From: Candidatus Endomicrobium labiotermitis
Lineage (GTDB): Bacteria > Elusimicrobiota > Endomicrobiia > Endomicrobiales > Endomicrobiaceae
Direction of reading: 5' to 3'
Length of the DNA stretch: 64,000 bases
NCBI GenBank assembly: GCA_009778965.1
Contig: WRFE01000003.1
Span: forward strand, 2,585 to 66,584
Shown piece after piece: positions 236-14,290 of this stretch (its first letter is position 1; each line of letters begins with the position of its first letter). The notes under the pieces are model-generated. The model saw only the letters and a list, made by a program, of their open reading frames with translations, was not told where the DNA came from and made no database searches. A program made the position numbers and the translations under genes.

Positions 236-2323
236 TTAATTATTTGCTGTTATCCCGTTGTAAAAATATTCTAATATATATGTTTCAAATGGATGTATAT
301 CTTGAATTTTTGACTTCATTATTTCAAATCCAATTCCATTGAATTTGACAATTACATCATGAATTGTTAAGTTTTCATCTTCAAAATTTATAATATTTGA
401 ATTTTGTATTTTTCTACTAATCATTCTCGGTAAACCATATTCTTCCAAAGCATAGACTATTTTCGGTAAAAAAGCATTTGAAAGTTTGAATACAAAAGGT
501 GATATATCTACGTTATTCTCACGTAAGCAGTATTTCTGCAAAACATTAACATCATTTAAAAGGGCAGCAAAATTAAATGTAACAAATTTTTCAAAATGAA
601 AATATTTTTCTGTAGATAAATTATTAAAACTAGATAAAATGTCAGGTATAGGTTTAGACCAATTATTAGATATAGCTTTTATATAAGAAACCATGTTTAC
701 ATATTCCGTGCCTACTGCCCCTCCGCAAAATTTTAAAAGCTTATATAACATTCTATCCCAATTATCAACATCTGAAGAAACAATGTATGCTAATCCATTC
801 CATTCTTTCGAATTGTTCTGCATGTCAGTTATTATATCCCGATGAAGTTCATGATCCATTGTCTGTAAAGCATGTTGTTTTATGAGCTTTTTATAAACTT
901 TTTCGCCCAATAAATTATCCATTTCTTCTTCCAATACTTTTATCTTTTTAATTTGCTCTCTGGTTAAATCTTGTTCAAATTTTGCTTCATCTATACTGCT
1001 TAGTAGTTCTTCTGGAAAAGGAAGTGTTAATTCAATTGGTTTTTCTTCCGGAGGTTTTTCTAATAAAAAAACCTTTCCTATGAAGTGCTTAAACATCCTA
1101 CCGCCTCGACCAATTATATTTTTATATTTGAAAATATTTAATTTAGGTCTGCCGTCTTTGTTCGCCCATAAAATAATATTTTCTGCTGATGTGTTTATTC
1201 CCTCAATAATAGAAGATGTAGAAATTATGCTATCTAAACCTTTTTTTTCTTCAAATAAAGATATTTGTATTTGACTCAAAGATCTATGCAATTTCCCATT
1301 ATGTATCCCTATCCCTTTTTTTGATAACTCTGCTAAAGTGTAATTTTTACTATAGTTTTTTATTAACCAATCAGAAAATGAGTCTAGTAGAGTATCATTT
1401 TTTTGAGGTATTTCTCGATTAAGATATTGTGACACTATATCTATATTGTTATATGTTCCACAATATATTAATGTTTTTGAGGAATACTTCTTAAGAATTT
1501 CTAAAAGCTCTTTATTCTTATCTACTTCAGACTCTTTATATCTTTCATTTTGTTCCAAAAATACAGTATTGAAATCTATTGGTATAAACTCCATATCCTT
1601 TGTGAATTGGTTATCTTTTGCAATCGATGAAATATTTGGAGATAAATAATATTTTTGTTTTGATTTTTTACCCAATTCTAATATTACTTTTAAAAGAGCT
1701 GAAGTTCTTCCTTCATCATCAAACTCGGCCTTATAAAATTCATCAACTATTAAAATATCTATTTCTTCTATTGTATTTATATATGTGAGAGCTCTTTCTT
1801 GTGGAAAAATAAGTATATTTTTATCCGCTAATTCCGCATCAGGCATTGTAATAATCTTATATTCTTTGGCAAATTTTTTATACAACCGCCTTCGAGTCTC
1901 ATCTGTCAAAGCGATAGTAGGTACAATTACAACAACATTTTTTGGTTTTTTTATTGCAATAAAAGCATCTATTATAAAACTTTTTCCAAAGCTTGTTGAA
2001 GCACTAACTGCTATGTTTTTACCGTTCAGTAATTTTTGTAATAAAAGAGATTGCTCTCTGTGCAATGTAAGCTCTTCATCAGTTCCAACATTAACTTTAA
2101 AAGCGTTATAGACATATTGCTCTTGCCAACTTGAGGTTTCAAAATCCATATAAGGATATAATCCAACCTCTCTGATTAGATAGTTAATTAACTCATTATA
2201 TTCAATATTGTTTTGCTTACAAACATCAAGCAATTTGATAAGTTCATTTCGTGCTTCATTTTCATTGTTATTTAACAATAAATTATTAATATTAGCACAT
2301 GACTCGAAAACATCAATCTTCAT
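236..2323 (-). CDS. hamB: Hachiman B, SF2 (Ski2-like) helicase, 695 aa
   Basis: Walker A ASTSFGKS, IVDEFYK, GIHNG, STSSIIEGIN and GRGGR helicase motifs; starts 1 nt after the hamA stop. Confidence 0.85.
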   Translation of the reverse strand: MKIDVFESCANINNLLLNNNENEARNELIKLLDVCKQNNIEYNELINYLIREVGLYPYMDFETSSWQEQYVYNAFKVNVGTDEELTLHREQSLLLQKLLNGKNIAVSASTSFGKSFIIDAFIAIKKPKNVVVIVPTIALTDETRRRLYKKFAKEYKIITMPDAELADKNILIFPQERALTYINTIEEIDILIVDEFYKAEFDDEGRTSALLKVILELGKKSKQKYYLSPNISSIAKDNQFTKDMEFIPIDFNTVFLEQNERYKESEVDKNKELLEILKKYSSKTLIYCGTYNNIDIVSQYLNREIPQKNDTLLDSFSDWLIKNYSKNYTLAELSKKGIGIHNGKLHRSLSQIQISLFEEKKGLDSIISTSSIIEGINTSAENIILWANKDGRPKLNIFKYKNIIGRGGRMFKHFIGKVFLLEKPPEEKPIELTLPFPEELLSSIDEAKFEQDLTREQIKKIKVLEEEMDNLLGEKVYKKLIKQHALQTMDHELHRDIITDMQNNSKEWNGLAYIVSSDVDNWDRMLYKLLKFCGGAVGTEYVNMVSYIKAISNNWSKPIPDILSSFNNLSTEKYFHFEKFVTFNFAALLNDVNVLQKYCLRENNVDISPFVFKLSNAFLPKIVYALEEYGLPRMISRKIQNSNIINFEDENLTIHDVIVKFNGIGFEIMKSKIQDIHPFETYILEYFYNGITANN

Positions 2324-2324
2324 T

Positions 2325-3242
2325 TTATATTTCCCTTATCTTTTTAGCCGCACTCACAAACTGCTTGCTAATGATATTTTTATTAGGCACAGGAAACAGC
2401 ATAATGTGAAAGGATATTTTGTCATAATATGTTATTCTTCTTGATAATTTGTTGATTTGTTTTTGATAATATGCAGTCGCTTTTTCTCTATGGTAAGCTA
2501 CGATATCATCCTTGTATTTTTTGTTTGACTCTTTGGCATTGGCGGTTATCGAACACTCATGCAGTAATAGAATAGGGATATGCAATTTAGGTTTTAATTT
2601 ATCTATTGATGTTTCAGTAAGCAAAATGCGTTTGATTTTACCGAGCAGGGTTGGTTTATTTCCTAATATTCTATCTAAATCTGCTATGTTAGTAATAATA
2701 CTATTTTCTTTTTTTAATTTTTTTGTTAATAAGGAATTGCCTACAGATTCTATTATTTTGTCTAGGCGAGAATTTGTTATTGAATTATAAAATTTTGCTT
2801 CTCCAAACCATAAAGAAAAATCATCATTACTTTCAATGACAATATGAACGCTATCAGAACCTTTTGCATAATCATTATTATTTTGCTTATAAAATATTTT
2901 AGGTACGATTGATAATGCACCATAATAATGTTTCATGATGCCATATAATAAAATTTCCGCTAGTTCGCTAGCACCATTAACATCATTTTCTAGTAATCTT
3001 AATTTTTTTGCTGATTCAGAAAGTTTAGACATATCCACTAATGAACGTCTTTCTTTCAGTGTTAATGCCGTTTCTGATATATTATCCCATATAAATCTTT
3101 GAAATTTAGAGTATCTCCATTTCTTATCTTCGAAATCATTTATAATACTTAATACATATTTATTATCAATTGGGGACAATGTATTATCTGTTGTCACATT
3201 AATGAATCTGTCATCAATTAAAACTTCAAAATTTGGAGGCAT
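2325..3242 (-). CDS. hamA: Hachiman A (DUF1837) nuclease, 305 aa
   Basis: LAEILLY...KIFYK...KGSDSVHIV...LWFGEAKFY pattern typical of DUF1837; coupled to the helicase. Confidence 0.85.
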   Translation of the reverse strand: MPPNFEVLIDDRFINVTTDNTLSPIDNKYVLSIINDFEDKKWRYSKFQRFIWDNISETALTLKERRSLVDMSKLSESAKKLRLLENDVNGASELAEILLYGIMKHYYGALSIVPKIFYKQNNNDYAKGSDSVHIVIESNDDFSLWFGEAKFYNSITNSRLDKIIESVGNSLLTKKLKKENSIITNIADLDRILGNKPTLLGKIKRILLTETSIDKLKPKLHIPILLLHECSITANAKESNKKYKDDIVAYHREKATAYYQKQINKLSRRITYYDKISFHIMLFPVPNKNIISKQFVSAAKKIREI

Positions 3243-5636: not shown

Positions 5637-6098
5637 ATGATGAAAAAAATGGCGTTGGTAATGTTAGGATTGTTCGTAATGAGCAGCTTAGGTTTCGCGG
5701 GCGGAATTAAAGGCGAAGGGAAAGGCAAACAAATGGACCCGGAACAGAAAGCTAAATTTGAAGCAATGAAGAAAGAAAGAACGGAATACTTTAAAAACTT
5801 GGAAGTTCTTGTAGCAAAGTATAATGCCGCTTCCGAAAAAGACAGAGTAGCTGTAAAGAAAGAAATTACTAATCTTGTAACAACGAAAACCAATAAAAGA
5901 ATTGCTGATAAAAAAGCAGAAGTAGCAAAACTTGAAAAGAACAGAACCGCAGATGTAAACAAAAAAGTAGATTTTTTGCTTAGCGCGGAAGGACAAGCGA
6001 AAATGCAGAAAATGAAAGAAAAAGGCTTGCAGGCAAAAGGCGATAAAAGCTGCAAAAAAGATTTTAAGAAAAACAAAGGCGAAAAGATTAACGCATAA
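5637..6098 (+). CDS. Secreted Lys/Glu-rich helical protein, paralog A (Spy/CpxP-like), 153 aa
   Basis: Signal peptide ending GFA; RBS aggag; MDPEQKAKFEAM resembles the LTPEQ motif; clear paralog of 8384-8848. Confidence 0.8.
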   Translation: MMKKMALVMLGLFVMSSLGFAGGIKGEGKGKQMDPEQKAKFEAMKKERTEYFKNLEVLVAKYNAASEKDRVAVKKEITNLVTTKTNKRIADKKAEVAKLEKNRTADVNKKVDFLLSAEGQAKMQKMKEKGLQAKGDKSCKKDFKKNKGEKINA

Positions 6099-6904: not shown

Positions 6905-8074
6905 CTACCCTTTTACCACAGCAAGCGGGGTTAATTCTGTTTCTATTGAAACTAAATCCCTTTGCGCCTGCATAACATCTTCTATATTTTTATACGCGCC
7001 GGCGGCTTCGTCTAATTGTCCTCTGCCTGTTATTGAATGAATAATTCCTTGCGAATCAAGTTTATTTTTTTCTTTATGGAAATCCAGCTCTCTTATGGCC
7101 TGCTTTCTGCTCATTTTTCTGCCTGCCCCGTGCGAACAGGACATAAAGCTTTCCTCATTGCCAAGCCCTTTTACTATATAAGACTTTGTACCTTGGGAAC
7201 CCGGAATTATGCCGGTTTGCCCGTTATAAGCAGACGTTGCGCCCTTTCTGTGAACCCATACTTCTTTTTTAAAATGTTCTTCCTTTTTGCAGTAATTATG
7301 CGCTATATCAATATCATCATAAAAAGAACATCCCGGTATTTCTTCCGTAAAAATGCCTTTTACAATGTTTGCCATGGTTTTTCTGTTAAGCAAAGCAAAT
7401 TCTACGCAAAAGTTCATTTCGGCAAGATATTCCTTAAATAATTTTTCAGTTATAGGAATAAAGGCTAAATCCGCCTCTTTTGGAACGTGGGGAAAATTCG
7501 GCATATTAAGCTTTTTTGCCTGCAAATTATAGTATTCGGCAACCTGTTTGCCCAAATTTCTGCTGCCGCTGTGTATCATAAACCAAATATGCCCGTCAGA
7601 CCCTTTTTGAATTTCTATAAAATGATTGCCGCCGCCTAAAGTGCCGGCTTGAAAAGTCGCCGCTTTATATTGCTCACTGACTATTTTCATAGGAGTTTTT
7701 GTTTTTTCTTTCCATTTATTGAGCGGCAAAATTTCTACGGGAGTTTTTCTGTGTTCAAAACCTACGGGTATAGATTTTTTAATTTTATGCGTAATTTTCA
7801 GCAAAGTTTTCGCGTCAATTTCTTTAAGATTGGTTTTAACCGCGCGCATTCCGCAGCCTATATCCACCCCAACCGCGTTTGGGATTACAACGTCTTTACA
7901 TGCAAGTATCCCGCCGATTGGCATACCGTAGCCGCTGTGAGCGTCCGCCATTAAAGCTATATGACGAAACGCAAAAGGAAGCTTTGCCAAATTTAACGCC
8001 TGCTTTTTTGAAGCTTCGTCTAAATCTTTACACCATGATTTTATTATAAGCCCTTCGGTTTCTATGTGTTTCAT
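6905..8074 (-). CDS. rtcB: RNA 2',3'-cyclic phosphate/3'-phosphate ligase RtcB, 389 aa
   Basis: DAHSGYG, GVDIGCG, GGGNHFIE, IHSGSR, HRKGAT, SHGAGR and DEAAGAYK motifs. Confidence 0.95.
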   Translation of the reverse strand: MKHIETEGLIIKSWCKDLDEASKKQALNLAKLPFAFRHIALMADAHSGYGMPIGGILACKDVVIPNAVGVDIGCGMRAVKTNLKEIDAKTLLKITHKIKKSIPVGFEHRKTPVEILPLNKWKEKTKTPMKIVSEQYKAATFQAGTLGGGNHFIEIQKGSDGHIWFMIHSGSRNLGKQVAEYYNLQAKKLNMPNFPHVPKEADLAFIPITEKLFKEYLAEMNFCVEFALLNRKTMANIVKGIFTEEIPGCSFYDDIDIAHNYCKKEEHFKKEVWVHRKGATSAYNGQTGIIPGSQGTKSYIVKGLGNEESFMSCSHGAGRKMSRKQAIRELDFHKEKNKLDSQGIIHSITGRGQLDEAAGAYKNIEDVMQAQRDLVSIETELTPLAVVKG

Positions 8075-8383: not shown

Positions 8384-8848
8384 ATGATGAAAAAAACAGC
8401 GTTGGTGATGGCAGTAATGTTCGCTCTTAGCAGCATAGGTTTCGCAGGCGGAATGAAAGGCGAAGGAAAAGGCAAACAAATGGACCCCGAACAGAAAGCT
8501 AAAATGGAAGCAAAAAAAGCAGAGAAAGCGGAATACTTTAAAAACCTGGAAGTTCTTATAGAAAAGTATAATAACGCCGCCGAAAAAGATAAAGCCGCGA
8601 TAAAGAAAGAAGTTACTAATCTTGTAACAAAACAACAAGACAAAAGAATCGCATCAAAAAAAGATGAAGTCAGTAAACTTGAAAAGAACAAAACTGCCGA
8701 CATAAACAAAAAAGTAGAATTTTTGCTTAGCGAAGAAGGACAAGCGAAAATGCAGAAGATGAAAGAAAAAGGAAACAAAGAAGGTAAAGGCGAATTCAAG
8801 AAAGGCAAAGGCGGCAAAAAAGATTTTAAGAAAAATAAAGCTGAATAA
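8384..8848 (+). CDS. Secreted Lys/Glu-rich helical protein, paralog B, 154 aa
   Basis: Signal peptide; shares GKGKQMDPEQKAK, EYFKNLEV and INKKVEFLLS with paralog A; upstream ~90 nt also duplicated. Confidence 0.8.
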   Translation: MMKKTALVMAVMFALSSIGFAGGMKGEGKGKQMDPEQKAKMEAKKAEKAEYFKNLEVLIEKYNNAAEKDKAAIKKEVTNLVTKQQDKRIASKKDEVSKLEKNKTADINKKVEFLLSEEGQAKMQKMKEKGNKEGKGEFKKGKGGKKDFKKNKAE

Positions 8849-8907: not shown

Positions 8908-8939
8908 ATTTGTTTACAAATGGTTGTATTGCTTTTAGC

Positions 8940-9088
8940 GTCATTGCGATGAGCAACGAAAGTTGCGAAGAAGCAATCCATTGTTACTCACATACCCCGT
9001 CGGCTTTTGCCGACACCCCTTTATCTTAAAGGGGAATAACGGCGGAAGACAACGCGGATTGCTTCGTCATTTTATTCCTCGCAATGAC
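8940..9088. repeat. Paired REP (REPIN-like) element
   Basis: gtcattgcg...gcaatc 8940-8978 facing gattgc...cgcaatgac 9057-9088. Confidence 0.75.
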
Positions 9089-9111
9089 ATCCGAGGAGAT
9101 ATCTTGCGATA

Positions 9112-9489
9112 TTATTCTGCTTCTAATGACTTTTTTAATTTTATTTCTGTTAAAAGTTTAGCTAATTCTTCGAAAAAAATCGGCTTTTGCATATATCCCG
9201 CAGCGCCGAGTTCTTTTGCGTTTTCTTCCGTAAAGACCGATCCTGAACCTGTCATAAAATAAATATCAACATCCGCGTTAAGCTCTTTAAAATACGGAAA
9301 TAAATGATCGCCGTCCAAATCAGGAAGCATCAGATCTAAAAAAATAACGTCCGGCTTTTCGTTTTTACAAATTTCAAGCGCTTCTTTAGCCGTGCCCGCA
9401 AGAAAAACAGAAAAACCTTCTCTTTGCATAAATCTTGCTATGCTTTCTCTGGCAAAAACTTCATCATCAACTAACATAATTTTAATCAT
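9112..9489 (-). CDS. Single-domain response regulator (receiver), 125 aa
   Basis: MLVDDE, FLDLMLP (phospho-Asp), MTG and QKP motifs. Confidence 0.92.
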   Translation of the reverse strand: MIKIMLVDDEVFARESIARFMQREGFSVFLAGTAKEALEICKNEKPDVIFLDLMLPDLDGDHLFPYFKELNADVDIYFMTGSGSVFTEENAKELGAAGYMQKPIFFEELAKLLTEIKLKKSLEAE

Positions 9490-9553
9490 AACAAGATTTT
9501 ATCAAAAATAATTCCAAATATAAAGTTGTTAAGAGAGCATAAAATTCCATTTT

Positions 9554-9636
9554 GTCACCCTGAGCGAAACCGAAGGACCTGCCGTTAAAAAGCAGATGTT
9601 TCGGCTGCGCAACTGCGTTGCTCCGCTCAACATGAC
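9554..9636. repeat. Paired REP element in the divergent promoter region
   Basis: gtcaccctgagcgaaaccgaaggacc ... gatgtttcggctgcg...ctcaacatgac. Confidence 0.7.
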
Positions 9637-9650
9637 AACGCAAACATTCA

Positions 9651-9679
9651 TTGTAAAATATATATTATTTTGGTATTAT
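9651..9679 (+). promoter_or_regulatory. sigma70 promoter for the ALDH-kinase operon
   Basis: TTGTAA-17-TATTAT with TGn extension; RBS aaggagg before GTG at 9724. Confidence 0.6.
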
Positions 9680-9723
9680 CTCTCAATACAAATTATTCTG
9701 ATAAAAACGGCGAAGGAGGCTAG

Positions 9724-11328
9724 GTGATTAATAAGAAGATTAATCAATTTAACCTTTTTGTTGACGGAAAAGAAGTTGACACCGGCGTTTATGATTACAC
9801 TCCCTATTCAGATAAATTTATAACAGAATTCAAAAACACATACCGCATAATTACAAAATTAAAAAAAGACGAAATACCCGATAATGCAGACGAATATATC
9901 TATGCCCGCTACTGCGTAGGCGATGATTCTTTAAATTTAAAAGCTATAGACGCCGCGCATCGCGCCGCAAAAGAGTTTGGATCTTTTCCGGTTTCAAAAA
10001 GAAGAAAGATTATGCATGATATTCATGATAATCTTGAAAAAAACAAAGATAAGTTTATTAAAATGCTGCAAATAGAAGGTCATCCCATGAGCCTTGCTGA
10101 ATGGGAATACAGAGGAATGGAACTGATTTTTTCCGAGAAATCGGCAAAATTTTATGCCGACGAACTTTGGCGCGAAGTAACCCGTTTTAGAAACGAAACG
10201 CTTTATTTCGCAAGACGACCCGACGGAGTAGTTTGCATATCTTCCCCAAAAAACGCGTCGGCAAGCAATTCCAGCCTCGGGATTCACGCGCTGCTTAGCG
10301 GCAATACCTTAATAATAAAACCTCCTTTAAAAGCTCCGGTTTCCACTATATTTCTTTGGAAAGACATAATAAACCCCATGCTTGAAAAAAACGGCGCTCC
10401 CGCAGGCGCTATAAATATAGTCGTAGGAAATTCCAAAAGGATTATGGAGCAATGGCTGGCGTCGCCAAAAGTAAACGACGTATTGTTTTTCGGCGAAAGC
10501 GACGCGGGTCTTGAGATAGGCAGACAATGTTATAATGCCGGCAAAAAACCCATACTTGAACTTTCGGGCAGCGACCCGTTAATAGTATGGAAAGACTGCG
10601 ACGTTGACGACGCTGCAGATTCGGCCATGGACGCTTTTTTAGGCTCCACGCAGATTTGCATGGTACCGAAAAAGTTTATAGTGCACGAAGACATTTATGA
10701 TACTTTTGTGGATATAATGAAAGAAAAGATATCGAAAATAGTTTACGGACTGCCGTCGCAGCCTAACGTAATACTTTCTCCGGTAGTTAAAACCGACACT
10801 TTTGAAGAGTATTTTAAAGAAGCGCTGAGTAAAGGCGCAAAACTTTTATGCGGCGGAGCAAGAATAAATTATGACAATACGCTTAATCCGAAAGGGGCGT
10901 ATGTACGGCCTACCCTTATACAAATCGATGATGAACTGGATCCTTATTCTTTTTCCTGCGTTAAAAATGAGAGCTTTTTTCCGCTTATTCCCGTTATAAA
11001 AGTTAAGTCTTCAAAACCCGGAGCCGAAAAAGACAAGGAAATCTTTTCCAAAATGATAGATCTGGTTGACCAGAATGAATTCGGCTTAAGAATTTCCGCC
11101 TGGATAAAATCATACGTATATATAAGGCAGTTTATAAAATATCTTTCCAATTCCGGTCTTTTGAGAATAAACGCCAAACACGTTGAAGTTTCGGAATGTC
11201 TTGCCAGCCACGGCGGAACAAGAAAAACCAGCGGACCATTCGGCGAAATGAATTACATGTGGCTTAAAACCACTCATCTTCAAGGAATAACATTAGCAAG
11301 AGAAAGACGCAAAAACAGAAGAGACTGA
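9724..11328 (+). CDS. Divergent aldehyde dehydrogenase-superfamily protein, 534 aa
   Basis: SPKNAS (catalytic Asn), KPPLKAP, FFGESDAG, ELSGSDP (Glu), STQICMVP (Cys), NESFFP. Confidence 0.85.
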   Translation: MINKKINQFNLFVDGKEVDTGVYDYTPYSDKFITEFKNTYRIITKLKKDEIPDNADEYIYARYCVGDDSLNLKAIDAAHRAAKEFGSFPVSKRRKIMHDIHDNLEKNKDKFIKMLQIEGHPMSLAEWEYRGMELIFSEKSAKFYADELWREVTRFRNETLYFARRPDGVVCISSPKNASASNSSLGIHALLSGNTLIIKPPLKAPVSTIFLWKDIINPMLEKNGAPAGAINIVVGNSKRIMEQWLASPKVNDVLFFGESDAGLEIGRQCYNAGKKPILELSGSDPLIVWKDCDVDDAADSAMDAFLGSTQICMVPKKFIVHEDIYDTFVDIMKEKISKIVYGLPSQPNVILSPVVKTDTFEEYFKEALSKGAKLLCGGARINYDNTLNPKGAYVRPTLIQIDDELDPYSFSCVKNESFFPLIPVIKVKSSKPGAEKDKEIFSKMIDLVDQNEFGLRISAWIKSYVYIRQFIKYLSNSGLLRINAKHVEVSECLASHGGTRKTSGPFGEMNYMWLKTTHLQGITLARERRKNRRD

Positions 11329-11370
11329 TTTTGTTTATAAATATACCTATAAAAAGGATTCTTTAGACCG

Positions 11371-13548
11371 ATGTTTTCGCTTTCTAATTATTTTTTTAAT
11401 ATATACGCAATCCCGCCTCTTATAACAGCTTTTTTTGTTATTTTCATAACAATTAAAATGCTCGCCAATTGGGACAGATCCGACGCGATAAAGTATTTTG
11501 TGCTTTTTTGCTGTTCGCTTATTCTATGGCTGCTCGGCTTTTCAATGATGTACTTTTCGGCGAATCCCGATATTGCTTTCTTTTGGGCAAGAGTCGGATT
11601 TTTGGGAGTAACTTTCATTCCGGTTCTGGCTTTAATGTTCGTTTACGCTCAAGTCGGAACAAAAAAAATAAAAAGCAGCATATGGTATTTTGTCGCTTTC
11701 GCAGTTGTATGCTTAATCATTAACTGGTCAACCACTTTAATTTATAACGGCGTTAAACTTCATTTTTGGGGTTATTATCCTATAGCCGGCAAGCTTTACA
11801 TAATATTTTTGCTTATGTTTGTCGTTCTTTTCTCAATGTGCTCCTTTATTCTTTTTAAATCGGCTTTTAATTATTCGCTTCCTGCCGCGCAAAGACGCCA
11901 GATAGTTTATGTTTTTACGGCCTTTACCATATGCTTGCTCGGGGTTGTAGATTATATCGCCAAATATGAAGGCATAGAACTGTATCCTTTCGGTTATATA
12001 CTGATTGTTTTTTTCATAACTTTAATAAGTTTTGCGATAATAAAATATAATCTGCTTGACGTAGAGCTTGTTTTAGCCAGAACAGGACTGTATTTGCTGT
12101 TATATACCATTTTATTCGGCATTCCGGTTTTGATCGGGGTCAAAACCGGCAACTGGAAATTAGCTACTTTTATAGCCGTTATATTTGCGTCAATAGGAAC
12201 CATGGTTTTTAACGGCATACAAAAGAAAACCGAAAATCTGATGCTTGCGGAACAGCGTTCGTACCAGAATATTTTACTGCAGGCTGCCGCCGGGATGATG
12301 CAGCGCCACGACCTTAAAAAGCTTTTAAAAATAGTAGTTCATCTGGTAAAACGGTCGGTTAAAATAAAATTCGCTGCAATTTATCTTCTGGACGACGACG
12401 CGAAAGAATATAGAATAGTATCTTTCAGAGCTGATGACCGTCAGCATATTTTCAAAAATGCCCCTCCGGTTTTCTCGGACTCGCCTTTTGTTGAATTCAC
12501 AAAATCAAAAGAAATGCCTTTTGTTTATGAAGAAATTCCCGAAGCCGTTAAAAAGAAAATCCATTTTGATTTCAGAATAGGTCTTATAGTGCCGACTTTC
12601 GCGCTAAAAGAAGTAAACGGCTTTTTGCTGCTTGGTGAAAAAAACAACCACAAACCGTATTCCAAAGACGACATTAACATATTCAATATTCTTGCCTCCC
12701 AAACGGCAATGGCAATAGAAAACTGTATGTTTATCGAAGAATTTAAAAAAGCTCAGGAAAAAGTTTTTTCCGCGGAAAAGCTTGCTTCAATCGGCGGGCT
12801 TGCCGAAGGCGTAGCGCATCAAATTAACAACAGGCTTAACCATTTCTCCGTAATAGCCGGCGAAATGTACTATGAATTGGAAGAATTTAAAAATAAAATG
12901 ACGCCGCTTGTAAGCGACCAGAAAACTTTTTCCGAATCAATAAAATATTTTTATGACCTTTCGCATTCGCTTTCCGATAATGTAAAACGCACTAGCGCCA
13001 TAATAAAAGGCATTTTAAATTATGCGAGAGTTGAAGCAAGTGAAACGCAGTATAAAGAATTTGAACTTAAAGAAGTCGTTGAACTTTCAATAGATTTGCT
13101 TAAAGTCAAACATCACATAAAAGCAGAATCGCTTGTTGATTATTCCTCGGTCGGAAATAAAACGATATTCGGCATAAAATCGCTTATTATGGAATCGGTC
13201 TATAATCTTGTTGATAACGGCTATGAAGCAACGCTTGAAATGAAAGATTATGTGTCAAAACATAATCCCAGTATTAAGTATAATCCTAAAATAACCATTA
13301 TTCTTAATGATAATCCGGATTCAAGCGAAATAATAGTCGCGGATAACGGAATAGGAATAAAACCTGAAAATTTCAAGAAAACTTTCGCGCCGTTTTTTAC
13401 TACTAAATCTTCATATAAATCCGGCTCGGGAATAGGAATGTATGTCGTAAAAAGAATGATAGAAGAAATGCATAAAGGAAGTATTTGGATTGAATCCGAA
13501 TACTTGCAGGGAACAAAGATATATATTAATTTGCCTAAACCATCCTAA
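11371..13548 (+). CDS. Sensor histidine kinase: N-terminal 7TM sensor region, GAF-like domain, HisKA, HATPase; 725 aa
   Basis: About 7-9 hydrophobic helices; H-box VAHQINNRL; N-box NLVDNG; DNGIGI, PFFTTK, GSGIGM. Confidence 0.92.
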   Translation: MFSLSNYFFNIYAIPPLITAFFVIFITIKMLANWDRSDAIKYFVLFCCSLILWLLGFSMMYFSANPDIAFFWARVGFLGVTFIPVLALMFVYAQVGTKKIKSSIWYFVAFAVVCLIINWSTTLIYNGVKLHFWGYYPIAGKLYIIFLLMFVVLFSMCSFILFKSAFNYSLPAAQRRQIVYVFTAFTICLLGVVDYIAKYEGIELYPFGYILIVFFITLISFAIIKYNLLDVELVLARTGLYLLLYTILFGIPVLIGVKTGNWKLATFIAVIFASIGTMVFNGIQKKTENLMLAEQRSYQNILLQAAAGMMQRHDLKKLLKIVVHLVKRSVKIKFAAIYLLDDDAKEYRIVSFRADDRQHIFKNAPPVFSDSPFVEFTKSKEMPFVYEEIPEAVKKKIHFDFRIGLIVPTFALKEVNGFLLLGEKNNHKPYSKDDINIFNILASQTAMAIENCMFIEEFKKAQEKVFSAEKLASIGGLAEGVAHQINNRLNHFSVIAGEMYYELEEFKNKMTPLVSDQKTFSESIKYFYDLSHSLSDNVKRTSAIIKGILNYARVEASETQYKEFELKEVVELSIDLLKVKHHIKAESLVDYSSVGNKTIFGIKSLIMESVYNLVDNGYEATLEMKDYVSKHNPSIKYNPKITIILNDNPDSSEIIVADNGIGIKPENFKKTFAPFFTTKSSYKSGSGIGMYVVKRMIEEMHKGSIWIESEYLQGTKIYINLPKPS

Positions 13549-13592
13549 AAATGTACATTATATAGACATTCTCTATTTTGAGGCAGGAATTT

Positions 13593-13937
13593 ATGACTAA
13601 AGCAAAAAAAGTTTTGATTGTAGAAGATGATATTTTTATGCGACGCTTTCTCACGCGTTTCGGAGTAGAAAACGACGTGGCAAAAGACGGCGAAACCGCT
13701 CTTGAATTGTTAAAAGACAATTCTTATGACTGCGTTTTTCTAGATTTAAACTTAGGGACCGGAATAAGCGGTTTTGAAGTTTTAAAAAACATTAAATCGG
13801 ACAAACCTAAAACAGCGGTTATAATAATATCAGGCAGCGACGCGAAAGATGAAACAATCAGCATGGGAGCCGACTATTTTCTGGCAAAACCCATAGATTT
13901 GATTGAACTTAAACAAGTAGTAGAACATTATTTGTAA
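13593..13937 (+). CDS. Single-domain response regulator (receiver)
   Basis: VLIVEDD, FLDLNL, ISG and AKP motifs; start moved to the ATG at 13593. Confidence 0.9.
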   Translation: MTKAKKVLIVEDDIFMRRFLTRFGVENDVAKDGETALELLKDNSYDCVFLDLNLGTGISGFEVLKNIKSDKPKTAVIIISGSDAKDETISMGADYFLAKPIDLIELKQVVEHYL

Positions 13938-13970: not shown

Positions 13971-14290
13971 TCATCCTCGAAATTTCCCCGATTACGAATT
14001 TCGAGGACATGATCCATCGGGATCCATTTTAACTATTATAGTCGTTGTACCCTCACCTTAATCCTCTCCCTGACAAGGGAGAGGATAGTTTTTTCGTCAT
14101 TGCGGACTTGATCCGCAATCTATACCTTTAATAAAAACCCCGCCTGCAAAATAAATTGCAGGCGGGGGTTTTCTTTGCTTATTTCTATAATGTTTTTTCG
14201 TCTTTGTCTGTCATACTGAGGCAGCTTTATTGCCGAATGTATCCAGTAGTTAAAGGTATGGATTCTTCACCCTGCGGGATTCAGAATGAC
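13971..14290. repeat. Composite repeat cluster with a bidirectional terminator (14133-14172)
   Basis: REPs at 13971-14026, 14096-14120 and 14210-14290; 14050-14085 is a copy of 4631-4663; 17-bp stem aaaaaccccgcctgcaa / ttgcaggcggggttttt. Confidence 0.8.

Follow-up and report, generated by a model that had tools for sequence, protein, structure and literature searches.

A 64,000-nt stretch of contig WRFE01000003.1 (the window) from an uncultured Endomicrobium (Elusimicrobiota; genome of 1.89 Mb, 99.97% complete) contains a divergent aldehyde dehydrogenase (ALDH) gene followed by the gene of a sensor histidine kinase, whose input part comprises a HisKA_7TM membrane domain (i.e. seven transmembrane helices, 7TM) and a GAF domain, with a stand-alone receiver on either side (REC1 and REC2). 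The ALDH gene and the gene of a 7TM-GAF sensor were found side by side in nearly all genomes with this ALDH, whichever output domain the sensor carried. These results suggest that ALDH and sensor constitute an undescribed signalling unit. On balance it is probable that this unit is a two-gene module in which the ALDH controls how much there is of a small aldehyde or acid, most likely derived from lipids, and the 7TM-GAF input of the sensor reads this molecule.

Adjacency was quantified in a species scan (one genome per species, 72 loci) using hidden Markov models built from the window proteins and metagenomic homologues. Counts were restricted to 47 full-length ALDH orthologues with at least 900 nt of downstream sequence, and a link was defined as a same-strand HisKA_7TM open reading frame (ORF) within 1.5 kb. 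A HisKA_7TM gene was located downstream of the ALDH gene on the same strand in 45 of these 47 species genomes, with a spacing of no more than 150 nt in 39 and, often, an overlap of start and stop codons. All seven metagenomic ALDH homologues (50-86% identity) had a HisKA_7TM-GAF gene directly downstream and unrelated flanks. In an even sample of the phylum (i.e. 121 Elusimicrobiota genomes), the ALDH was detected in 13 genomes and the sensor gene was directly adjacent in 12 of them; 12 of the 13 best-scoring sensors in this sample adjoined an ALDH gene, the thirteenth being that of genome G028. The dependence is asymmetric: the ALDH is almost never found without the sensor, whereas sensors do occur without the ALDH. 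A preliminary description of the locus had placed ALDH and kinase in one possible signalling circuit, and the neighbourhood analysis that it suggested showed them to be a dedicated pair, the homologues of the ALDH subfamily being linked to 7TM kinases rather than unlinked. The pair was found in Elusimicrobiota, Omnitrophota, Nitrospirota and bins labelled Planctomycetota, all linked examples coming from uncultured organisms.

A distant ALDH clade (30-40% identity; Actinomycetota and Thermoanaerobaculia) provided an internal control and was linked to a sensor in none of 11 loci. Chance adjacency is ruled out by this unlinked clade together with the 45/47 and 12/13 counts. Neighbours of the distant clade were pyridoxal-phosphate (PLP) enzymes, acyl-activating enzymes or a polyketide synthase. 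In loci L064, L065, L060 and L077, the ALDH gene follows the gene of a PLP-dependent (PALP) enzyme and lies near AMP-binding and acyl-CoA dehydrogenase genes, and in Lentzea the gene immediately upstream encodes a polyketide synthase with enoylreductase, ketoreductase and acyl carrier protein domains (ER-KR-ACP). This sensor-less clade may provide a handle on the substrate class of the family in cultured organisms. A division of the sensors into one linked clade apart from the unlinked copies was rejected: the tree requires 7 changes, with copies that lack the link falling among linked sensors as local duplicates.

Pfam assignments were used to establish which part of the sensor accompanies the enzyme. 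The output of the linked sensor is usually a kinase, but a class III nucleotidyl cyclase domain (Guanylate_cyc) was present in L052 and L059 and an HD-GYP type domain (HD_5) occurred twice in L029. GAF was present in every linked sensor regardless of output domain (GAF_3 at residues 314-451 of the window sensor). Receivers were encoded within 6 kb of the pair in only 20 of the 47 loci, so that the two flanking receivers, which the preliminary description had treated as part of the circuit, do not belong to the conserved unit. With outputs variable and receivers present in a minority of loci, what stays with the ALDH is therefore the input module and not phosphotransfer, and the conserved core is ALDH plus 7TM-GAF input rather than a two-component system. 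Three linked sensors of Nitrospirota carry two tandem HisKA_7TM modules in 974-1026 aa (L025:3306-6230, L048:7455-10535 and L056:7577-10510). The double-7TM sensors of L048 and L056 pair with ALDHs that bear a PilZ domain, while the ALDH of L025 has an N-terminal extension without a PilZ match. An NtrC-type sigma-54 activator gene follows the kinase gene in L048. In an Omnitrophota locus (L041:722-2164), the gene of a receiver-methyltransferase-like fusion (480 aa) precedes those of a 7TM-only protein and a FabK-like enzyme, beside the ALDH gene; few other receivers encoded near the pair have an output domain.

Membership of the window ALDH in the superfamily was clear (225 bits against Pfam PF00171, cut-off 23). 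Its motifs SPKNAS, FFGES, ELSGSDP and NESFFP align to the canonical PWNFP, FTGS, ELGG and EEIFGP, respectively. Residues N177, E279, C312 and E416 align to the motifs of structure 8HAP, K199 corresponds in the same alignment to the canonical KPS lysine, and all five are invariant in 26 diverse homologues; we take them to be equivalent, in ALDH2 numbering, to Asn169 (oxyanion), Glu268 (base), Cys302 and the cofactor-site residues Glu399 and Lys192. The enzyme is thus predicted to be catalytically competent. A glutamate at the position of Glu279 is a general hint of a hydrolytic ALDH, and its invariance here fits a hydrolytic, acid-forming enzyme better than a CoA-acylating one. At least 722 homologues were detected, of which the best 120 share 49-100% identity and come from Endomicrobia/Elusimicrobia, Omnitrophota and others; mean column identity across the 26 diverse homologues was 44%. 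None of the 25 NCBIfam equivalogs listed, betaine-aldehyde dehydrogenase among them, approached its cut-off (best 191 bits versus 650 for NF040648), and PDB sequence and fold searches returned generic ALDHs of 20-24% identity, so that assignment to a named ALDH was ruled out. The AlphaFold2 (AF2) model (pLDDT 86.5) has the canonical ALDH fold and is equally similar to many solved ALDHs (TM-scores of 0.77-0.84). A helical insertion near the N-terminus (approximately residues 28-60) is found throughout the family and is missing from the ALDHs aligned with the window enzyme. The preliminary description was therefore right about the retained Asn, Glu and Cys and about this insertion; the departures from consensus that it had listed are real, but they mark a large subfamily and are no peculiarity of the window gene. 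Taken together, these ALDHs appear to form an uncharacterised, large and well conserved subfamily, of which the window enzyme is the sole member in its genome, where the only other match to the ALDH profile is weak and partial.

Approximately one-tenth of the ALDHs among the matches listed have an N-terminal extension, in most cases a PilZ domain bearing both motifs for binding of cyclic di-GMP (c-di-GMP). Pfam located PilZ (PF07238) at the N-terminus of the ALDH in L048 (L048:5353-7605), L052, P0098, P0099, P0101 and P0118, and both RxxxR and [DN]xSxxG were present in 10 of 18 examined ALDH forms of at least 560 aa. The window ALDH has no PilZ domain according to Pfam. Fusion of PilZ to the enzyme implies that the enzymatic step is itself regulated.

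The sensor was assigned to the HisKA_7TM family by an N-terminal match to PF16927 (66.4 bits, cut-off 28.6, residues 17-231). Its membrane part was modelled as nine helices, i.e. the 7TM domain and two more (AF2, pLDDT 92.4). A conserved beta-hairpin, HFWGYYPxAG (residues 125-139), lies between helices 4 and 5 and, together with a YPFGY loop, is predicted by the positive-inside rule to face outwards, which would leave GAF and the kinase core in the cytoplasm. Foldseek returned no solved relative of the helix bundle but only a weak, generic seven-helix resemblance (G-protein-coupled receptors, TM-scores of 0.4-0.5, E ~1e-3), which was too weak to be accepted as homology or as a transporter or rhodopsin fold. 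The H-box histidine H483 in the DHp domain and the N-, G1- and G2-box residues (N612/N616, D658/G660/G662 and G685/G687/G689) are invariant in 39 orthologues, as in two-component histidine kinases; the Pfam HisKA model is silent on the window kinase yet matches some of its orthologues. Both receivers are of the PF00072 family with a full set of phosphorylation-site residues: the acidic pair D8/D9, phospho-acceptor D52, T80 and K102 in REC1, and D18/D19, phospho-acceptor D56, S85 and K105 in REC2 (119-aa numbering). A divergent receiver gene at the REC1 site also occurs in L003/L011 and L012 and not in L001/L009 or L010, and a receiver gene at the REC2 site is shared with L001, L006, L008 and many Omnitrophota loci. 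A paralogue of REC1 with 76% identity is encoded elsewhere in the genome (G000:C1:4527-4892, minus strand; L083), upstream of two large genes for exported or lipoprotein-like products of 277 and 1105 aa; this paralogue may be an additional phosphotransfer partner and hint at an output. A second HisKA_7TM-GAF histidine kinase (720 aa) is present in the window genome (G000:C42:8780-10939, minus strand; L082:3778-5940). This kinase has no ALDH or reductase gene upstream, its upstream neighbour being UvrC-like, and a paralogue of its type was found in every ALDH-bearing Endomicrobiaceae genome sampled.

Genes of lipid chemistry occur around the pair and its paralogues. In L047, the ORF at 1471-3033 combines a Polyketide_cyc (SRPBCC) domain with a full-length match to a long-chain acyl-ACP reductase (PDB 6JZQ, E 9e-36); the gene of a paralogous 7TM-GAF kinase begins within this ORF, which lies a few kb upstream of the ALDH-sensor pair (L047:888-5195). 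A PlsC-type acyltransferase gene precedes the reductase-like gene in this locus. Two Omnitrophota loci (L034:1-3552 and L045:1-3085) are arranged alike, in the order reductase, kinase, receivers, ALDH, kinase, receiver. All three reductase-like genes of the Elusimicrobiota sample adjoin a 7TM sensor gene. Genome G028 (L081, G028:C8:38000-51000) has the order prfB, a 117-nt gap, a first kinase gene (HK1), SRPBCC, reductase-like gene, a second kinase gene (HK2) and purC, while in L053 the ALDH gene is directly followed by purC and the sensors are lost; a single ancestral array seems to have left reciprocal remnants in the two. FabK-like genes (NMO, an FMN oxidoreductase) adjoin the ALDH gene in 8 loci, a GMC oxidoreductase gene does so in 2 and a FabH-like gene is present in L051, and in some lineages genes of these three kinds are inserted within or beside the ALDH-sensor pair. 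Such neighbours are circumstantial pointers to acyl-chain chemistry around an aldehyde. Pairing of sensor paralogues with an acyl-ACP-reductase-like (i.e. fatty-aldehyde-forming) enzyme supports the view that the signal is an aldehyde or acid derived from lipids.

The proposed mechanism starts from what was observed: the genes, domains and catalytic residues, a sensor gene next to almost every ALDH gene, an ALDH that is kept whichever output domain the sensor has, PilZ fused to some ALDHs, and sensor paralogues paired with a reductase-like enzyme. The cytoplasmic ALDH would act on the input side of the sensor by setting the cellular level of an aldehyde or of the acid derived from it, and the helix bundle, the GAF domain or both would read this molecule. 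We infer that the ligand is a substrate or product of the ALDH; a lipophilic compound and oxidation of aldehyde to acid are the probable nature and direction. In this Endomicrobium, the kinase would then phosphorylate receivers without output domains (the operon-encoded REC2, the neighbouring REC1 and perhaps also the paralogue of REC1), which may act on their targets by protein-protein contact. The lipophilic aldehyde or acid put forward in the preliminary description thus gains circumstantial support from the SRPBCC-acyl-ACP-reductase-like enzymes paired with sensor paralogues and from the FabK-like, FabH-like and GMC genes near the pair.

Several observations weigh against this two-gene ligand module. 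No sensor gene lies near the ALDH orthologues of L051 and L053; G028 has kept an orthologous kinase and lost the ALDH, with the 117-nt gap at the expected ALDH site; and 24 other Elusimicrobiota genomes encode more distant 7TM-family sensors and no ALDH. Searches of the window genome detected no acyl-ACP-reductase-like, FabK-like or GMC homologue, so the source of the aldehyde there is unexplained. The nearest NCBIfam equivalogs, all scoring far below their cut-offs, are short-chain enzymes (lactaldehyde, ketoglutarate-semialdehyde and succinate-semialdehyde dehydrogenases). Pairwise distances of ALDH and sensor correlate (r = 0.85; Mantel 0 of 2000), but this mirror-tree correlation is confounded by shared species history, which alone could yield it, and is therefore held as consistent with the pair and not as evidence of co-evolution. 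Finally, the data do not separate binding by the helix bundle from binding by GAF, nor control by a ligand from direct protein contact.

Direct contact is the essence of one rival, which we consider unlikely: the ALDH may be a protein co-sensor that touches the cytoplasmic loops or GAF domain of the sensor and relays its own state with no diffusible ligand, like trigger enzymes and transporter co-sensors. The states relayed, for which our expectation is equally low, would be substrate-bound or free, NAD(P)+ or NAD(P)H and, in PilZ forms, c-di-GMP-bound. Overlap of start and stop codons or a spacing of 5-40 nt in most loci suggests matched synthesis of the two proteins; the ALDH is more conserved than the sensor (mean p-distance of 0.45 versus 0.66) and has its family-wide helical insertion, missing from aligned ALDHs; PilZ would suit an adaptor that integrates c-di-GMP; and the asymmetric dependence of the two genes also agrees with a co-sensor. 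However, the whole catalytic set is strictly invariant, which argues that turnover matters, and in the unlinked actinobacterial clade the match to the ALDH extends over residues 1-528, so that its N-terminal region is not specific to linkage. No ALDH-sensor fusion was present among the matches listed for the ALDH search or the sensor-side search (54 matches), a comparison limited by protein length and word matching. An extra oxidoreductase gene between ALDH and sensor in six loci (L029, L032, L034, L036, L044 and L070) suits a pathway better than a complex.

A second rival, that the ALDH has an ordinary role in detoxification or catabolism and that the sensor controls its expression or is merely co-expressed with it, would reflect the commonest cause of a regulator lying beside an enzyme, and is compatible with a housekeeping role for the only true ALDH of the genome and with the NtrC-type activator of L048. 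It is nevertheless the rival most strongly argued against by the data, and we regard it as distinctly improbable, because no DNA-binding regulator is conserved with the pair, the ALDH is retained where the output is a cyclase or HD-GYP domain, and PilZ on the enzyme points to post-translational control. The scarcity of receivers of any kind near the pair, the position of the enzyme gene upstream in the same unit, often translationally coupled, which is an unusual layout for an induced target and its sensor, and the patterns of loss, which tie the ALDH to the sensor and not to any metabolic pathway, point the same way. Our lowest estimate goes to a cell-to-cell signal, in which the ALDH would be an autoinducer synthase and the exported acid would be read from outside by the helix bundle, as in CqsA/CqsS or RpfF/RpfC/RpfG. 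The combination of an enzyme, a polytopic membrane kinase and receivers lacking outputs does recall lqs and cqs clusters, the bundle has conserved aromatic loops on what is predicted to be its outer face and the HD-GYP output of L029 recalls RpfG; yet there is no CqsA-type PLP acyltransferase and no RpfF-type crotonase, the ALDH is cytoplasmic, no conserved exporter is encoded nearby in the 7 metagenomic loci, and the conserved cytoplasmic GAF domain suggests an internal ligand.

Beyond the two-gene ligand module itself, a wider scheme is possible but doubtful. HisKA_7TM-GAF proteins might be widespread receptors for lipid-derived aldehydes or acids, each hard-wired to a maker (SRPBCC-acyl-ACP reductase) or a remover (ALDH) of the ligand. 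An ancestral array of ALDH, first sensor, SRPBCC-reductase and second sensor would then have been a maker-and-breaker circuit with two read-outs, gated by c-di-GMP through PilZ in some phyla and coupled to interchangeable outputs (i.e. phosphorelay, cyclic nucleotide synthesis or c-di-GMP hydrolysis).

The features of the window locus are collected in Table 1. ORF listing and Pfam identified four genes, for a receiver, the ALDH, the HisKA_7TM-GAF histidine kinase and a receiver, and together with the promoter scan they confirmed the gene order of the preliminary description, including the 42-nt gap between the ALDH stop (11328) and the kinase ATG (11371). Pfam detected no DNA-binding or other output domain among the locus proteins, again as described before. 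The start of REC2 is most likely ATG 13593 and not the listed TTG 13578, because GAGG at 13580-13583 precedes the former. No terminator-like hairpin was found by the terminator scan in either intergenic gap of the operon, and ALDH and sensor are predicted to share one transcript from a conserved putative promoter. The promoter block (TTGTAA-17-TGnTATTAT) is kept in five Endomicrobium loci (the window, L009, L010, L011 and L012) despite differing upstream genes; the ALDH operon therefore brings its own promoter wherever it is located, and the pair and promoter appear to move as one unit.

Table 1. Features of the ALDH-sensor locus (positions in the window)
Feature	Position	Strand	Basis
REC1, stand-alone receiver, 125 aa, divergent from the ALDH operon	9112-9489	-	Pfam Response_reg only, 1e-24
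Predicted sigma-70-type promoter of the ALDH operon, TTGTAA-17 nt-extended -10 TGnTATTAT	9651-9679	+	Consensus scan
Putative ribosome-binding site GAAGGAGG, 4 nt ahead of the ALDH GTG start	9712-9719	+	Sequence reading
Divergent ALDH, 534 aa, GTG start, cytoplasmic	9724-11328	+	Pfam Aldedh 1.8e-66, residues 66-503
HisKA_7TM-GAF histidine kinase gene, whole ORF	11371-13548	+	Pfam HisKA_7TM, GAF_3, HATPase_c
Membrane input part of the sensor, HisKA_7TM and two further helices	11371-12255	+	Pfam PF16927, AF2
Cytoplasmic GAF domain of the sensor	12256-12735	+	Pfam GAF_3 and GAF_2, residues 313-451
Histidine kinase core, DHp and catalytic domain	12736-13548	+	Pfam HATPase_c 9e-20, residues 606-724
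REC2, stand-alone receiver, final operon gene, 114 aa from ATG 13593	13593-13937	+	Pfam Response_reg only, 5.5e-21
Two terminator-like hairpins, 14061-14086 and bidirectional 14138-14167 (operon end)	14061-14167	+	Terminator scan

Between REC1 and the ALDH promoter lies a block of about 115 nt (9535-9649), which the orthologous spacers in L011 and L012 lack. This block contains GC-rich inverted segments and resembles a hairpin (repetitive extragenic palindrome, REP-like) repeat, and a similar-looking element is present at approximately 8930-9100. Elsewhere in the window, paralogous genes at 5637-6098 and 8384-8848 encode Lys/Glu-rich exported proteins of 153 and 154 aa, which both start with MMKK and have the block GEGKGKQMDPEQKAK in common. 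The two genes flank an RtcB RNA ligase gene (6905-8074, minus strand), and no Pfam match was obtained for the copy at 8384-8848.

No ligand is known for most membrane sensor kinases or for any member of the HisKA_7TM family. The literature searched contained only domain censuses of HisKA_7TM, with no ligand or partner reported and no mention of enzyme pairing. Likewise, no description of the ALDH-sensor pair was found in the literature searched on the sensor family, ALDHs, PilZ and acyl-ACP reductase, which lay largely outside subscription journals. A near-obligate enzyme partner narrows the search for a ligand to the substrates and products of that enzyme, and thus makes the question testable by expressing two genes. 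Interchangeable outputs and PilZ fusions place the enzyme on the input side of the sensor, an arrangement of which conserved examples are rare, and the pair spans mostly uncultured phyla whose signalling is unknown. If the link to the paralogues paired with acyl-ACP reductases holds, the module would be a sign of signalling by fatty aldehydes, or of membrane-lipid homeostasis, in bacteria.

The closest known systems include the quorum-sensing pairs named in the preliminary description. In CqsA/CqsS of Vibrio and LqsA/LqsS/LqsR of Legionella, an enzyme makes a lipophilic ligand that is read by a membrane domain, and LqsR, a response regulator of the Legionella cluster, lacks a DNA-binding domain. 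As here, the enzyme gene adjoins that of a polytopic membrane histidine kinase. However, CqsA and LqsA are PLP-dependent acyl-CoA transferases whereas the present enzyme is an ALDH, and no aminotransferase-class gene was found in the operon or conserved in the 47 loci. The sensor part of CqsS and LqsS has six helices, and both proteins lack GAF; in the present pair GAF is present, the output may also be a cyclase or HD-GYP domain and the enzyme may carry PilZ. In the diffusible signal factor (DSF) system of Xanthomonas, RpfF makes a fatty-acid-type signal and is encoded beside the sensor kinase RpfC, and an HD-GYP protein provides the link to c-di-GMP turnover. The HD-GYP output of one lineage (L029) and PilZ on some ALDHs recall RpfF/RpfC/RpfG, but RpfF is a crotonase-fold enoyl-CoA hydratase and RpfC a five-helix hybrid kinase, no sequence relationship to either was found here, and the conversion of aldehyde to acid proposed for the ALDH would differ from the chemistry of RpfF. 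As the defining enzymes and sensor domains are absent, the likeness to all three systems is one of analogy and not of membership, and the quorum-sensing parallel survives in that sense only. A further comparison is with cyanobacteria, in which acyl-ACP reductase (AAR, PDB 6JZQ) and an aldehyde dehydrogenase act as maker and remover of a long-chain aldehyde. An AAR-like gene and the ALDH gene lie a few kb apart in L034, L045 and L047, and in G028 an AAR-like pair stands beside the remnant of an ALDH pair; the window genome has no AAR-like gene, and long-chain substrates are a possibility for the ALDH. In cyanobacteria the two enzymes function in alkane synthesis and in detoxification, with no connection to sensors, whereas here each enzyme has its own 7TM-GAF sensor.

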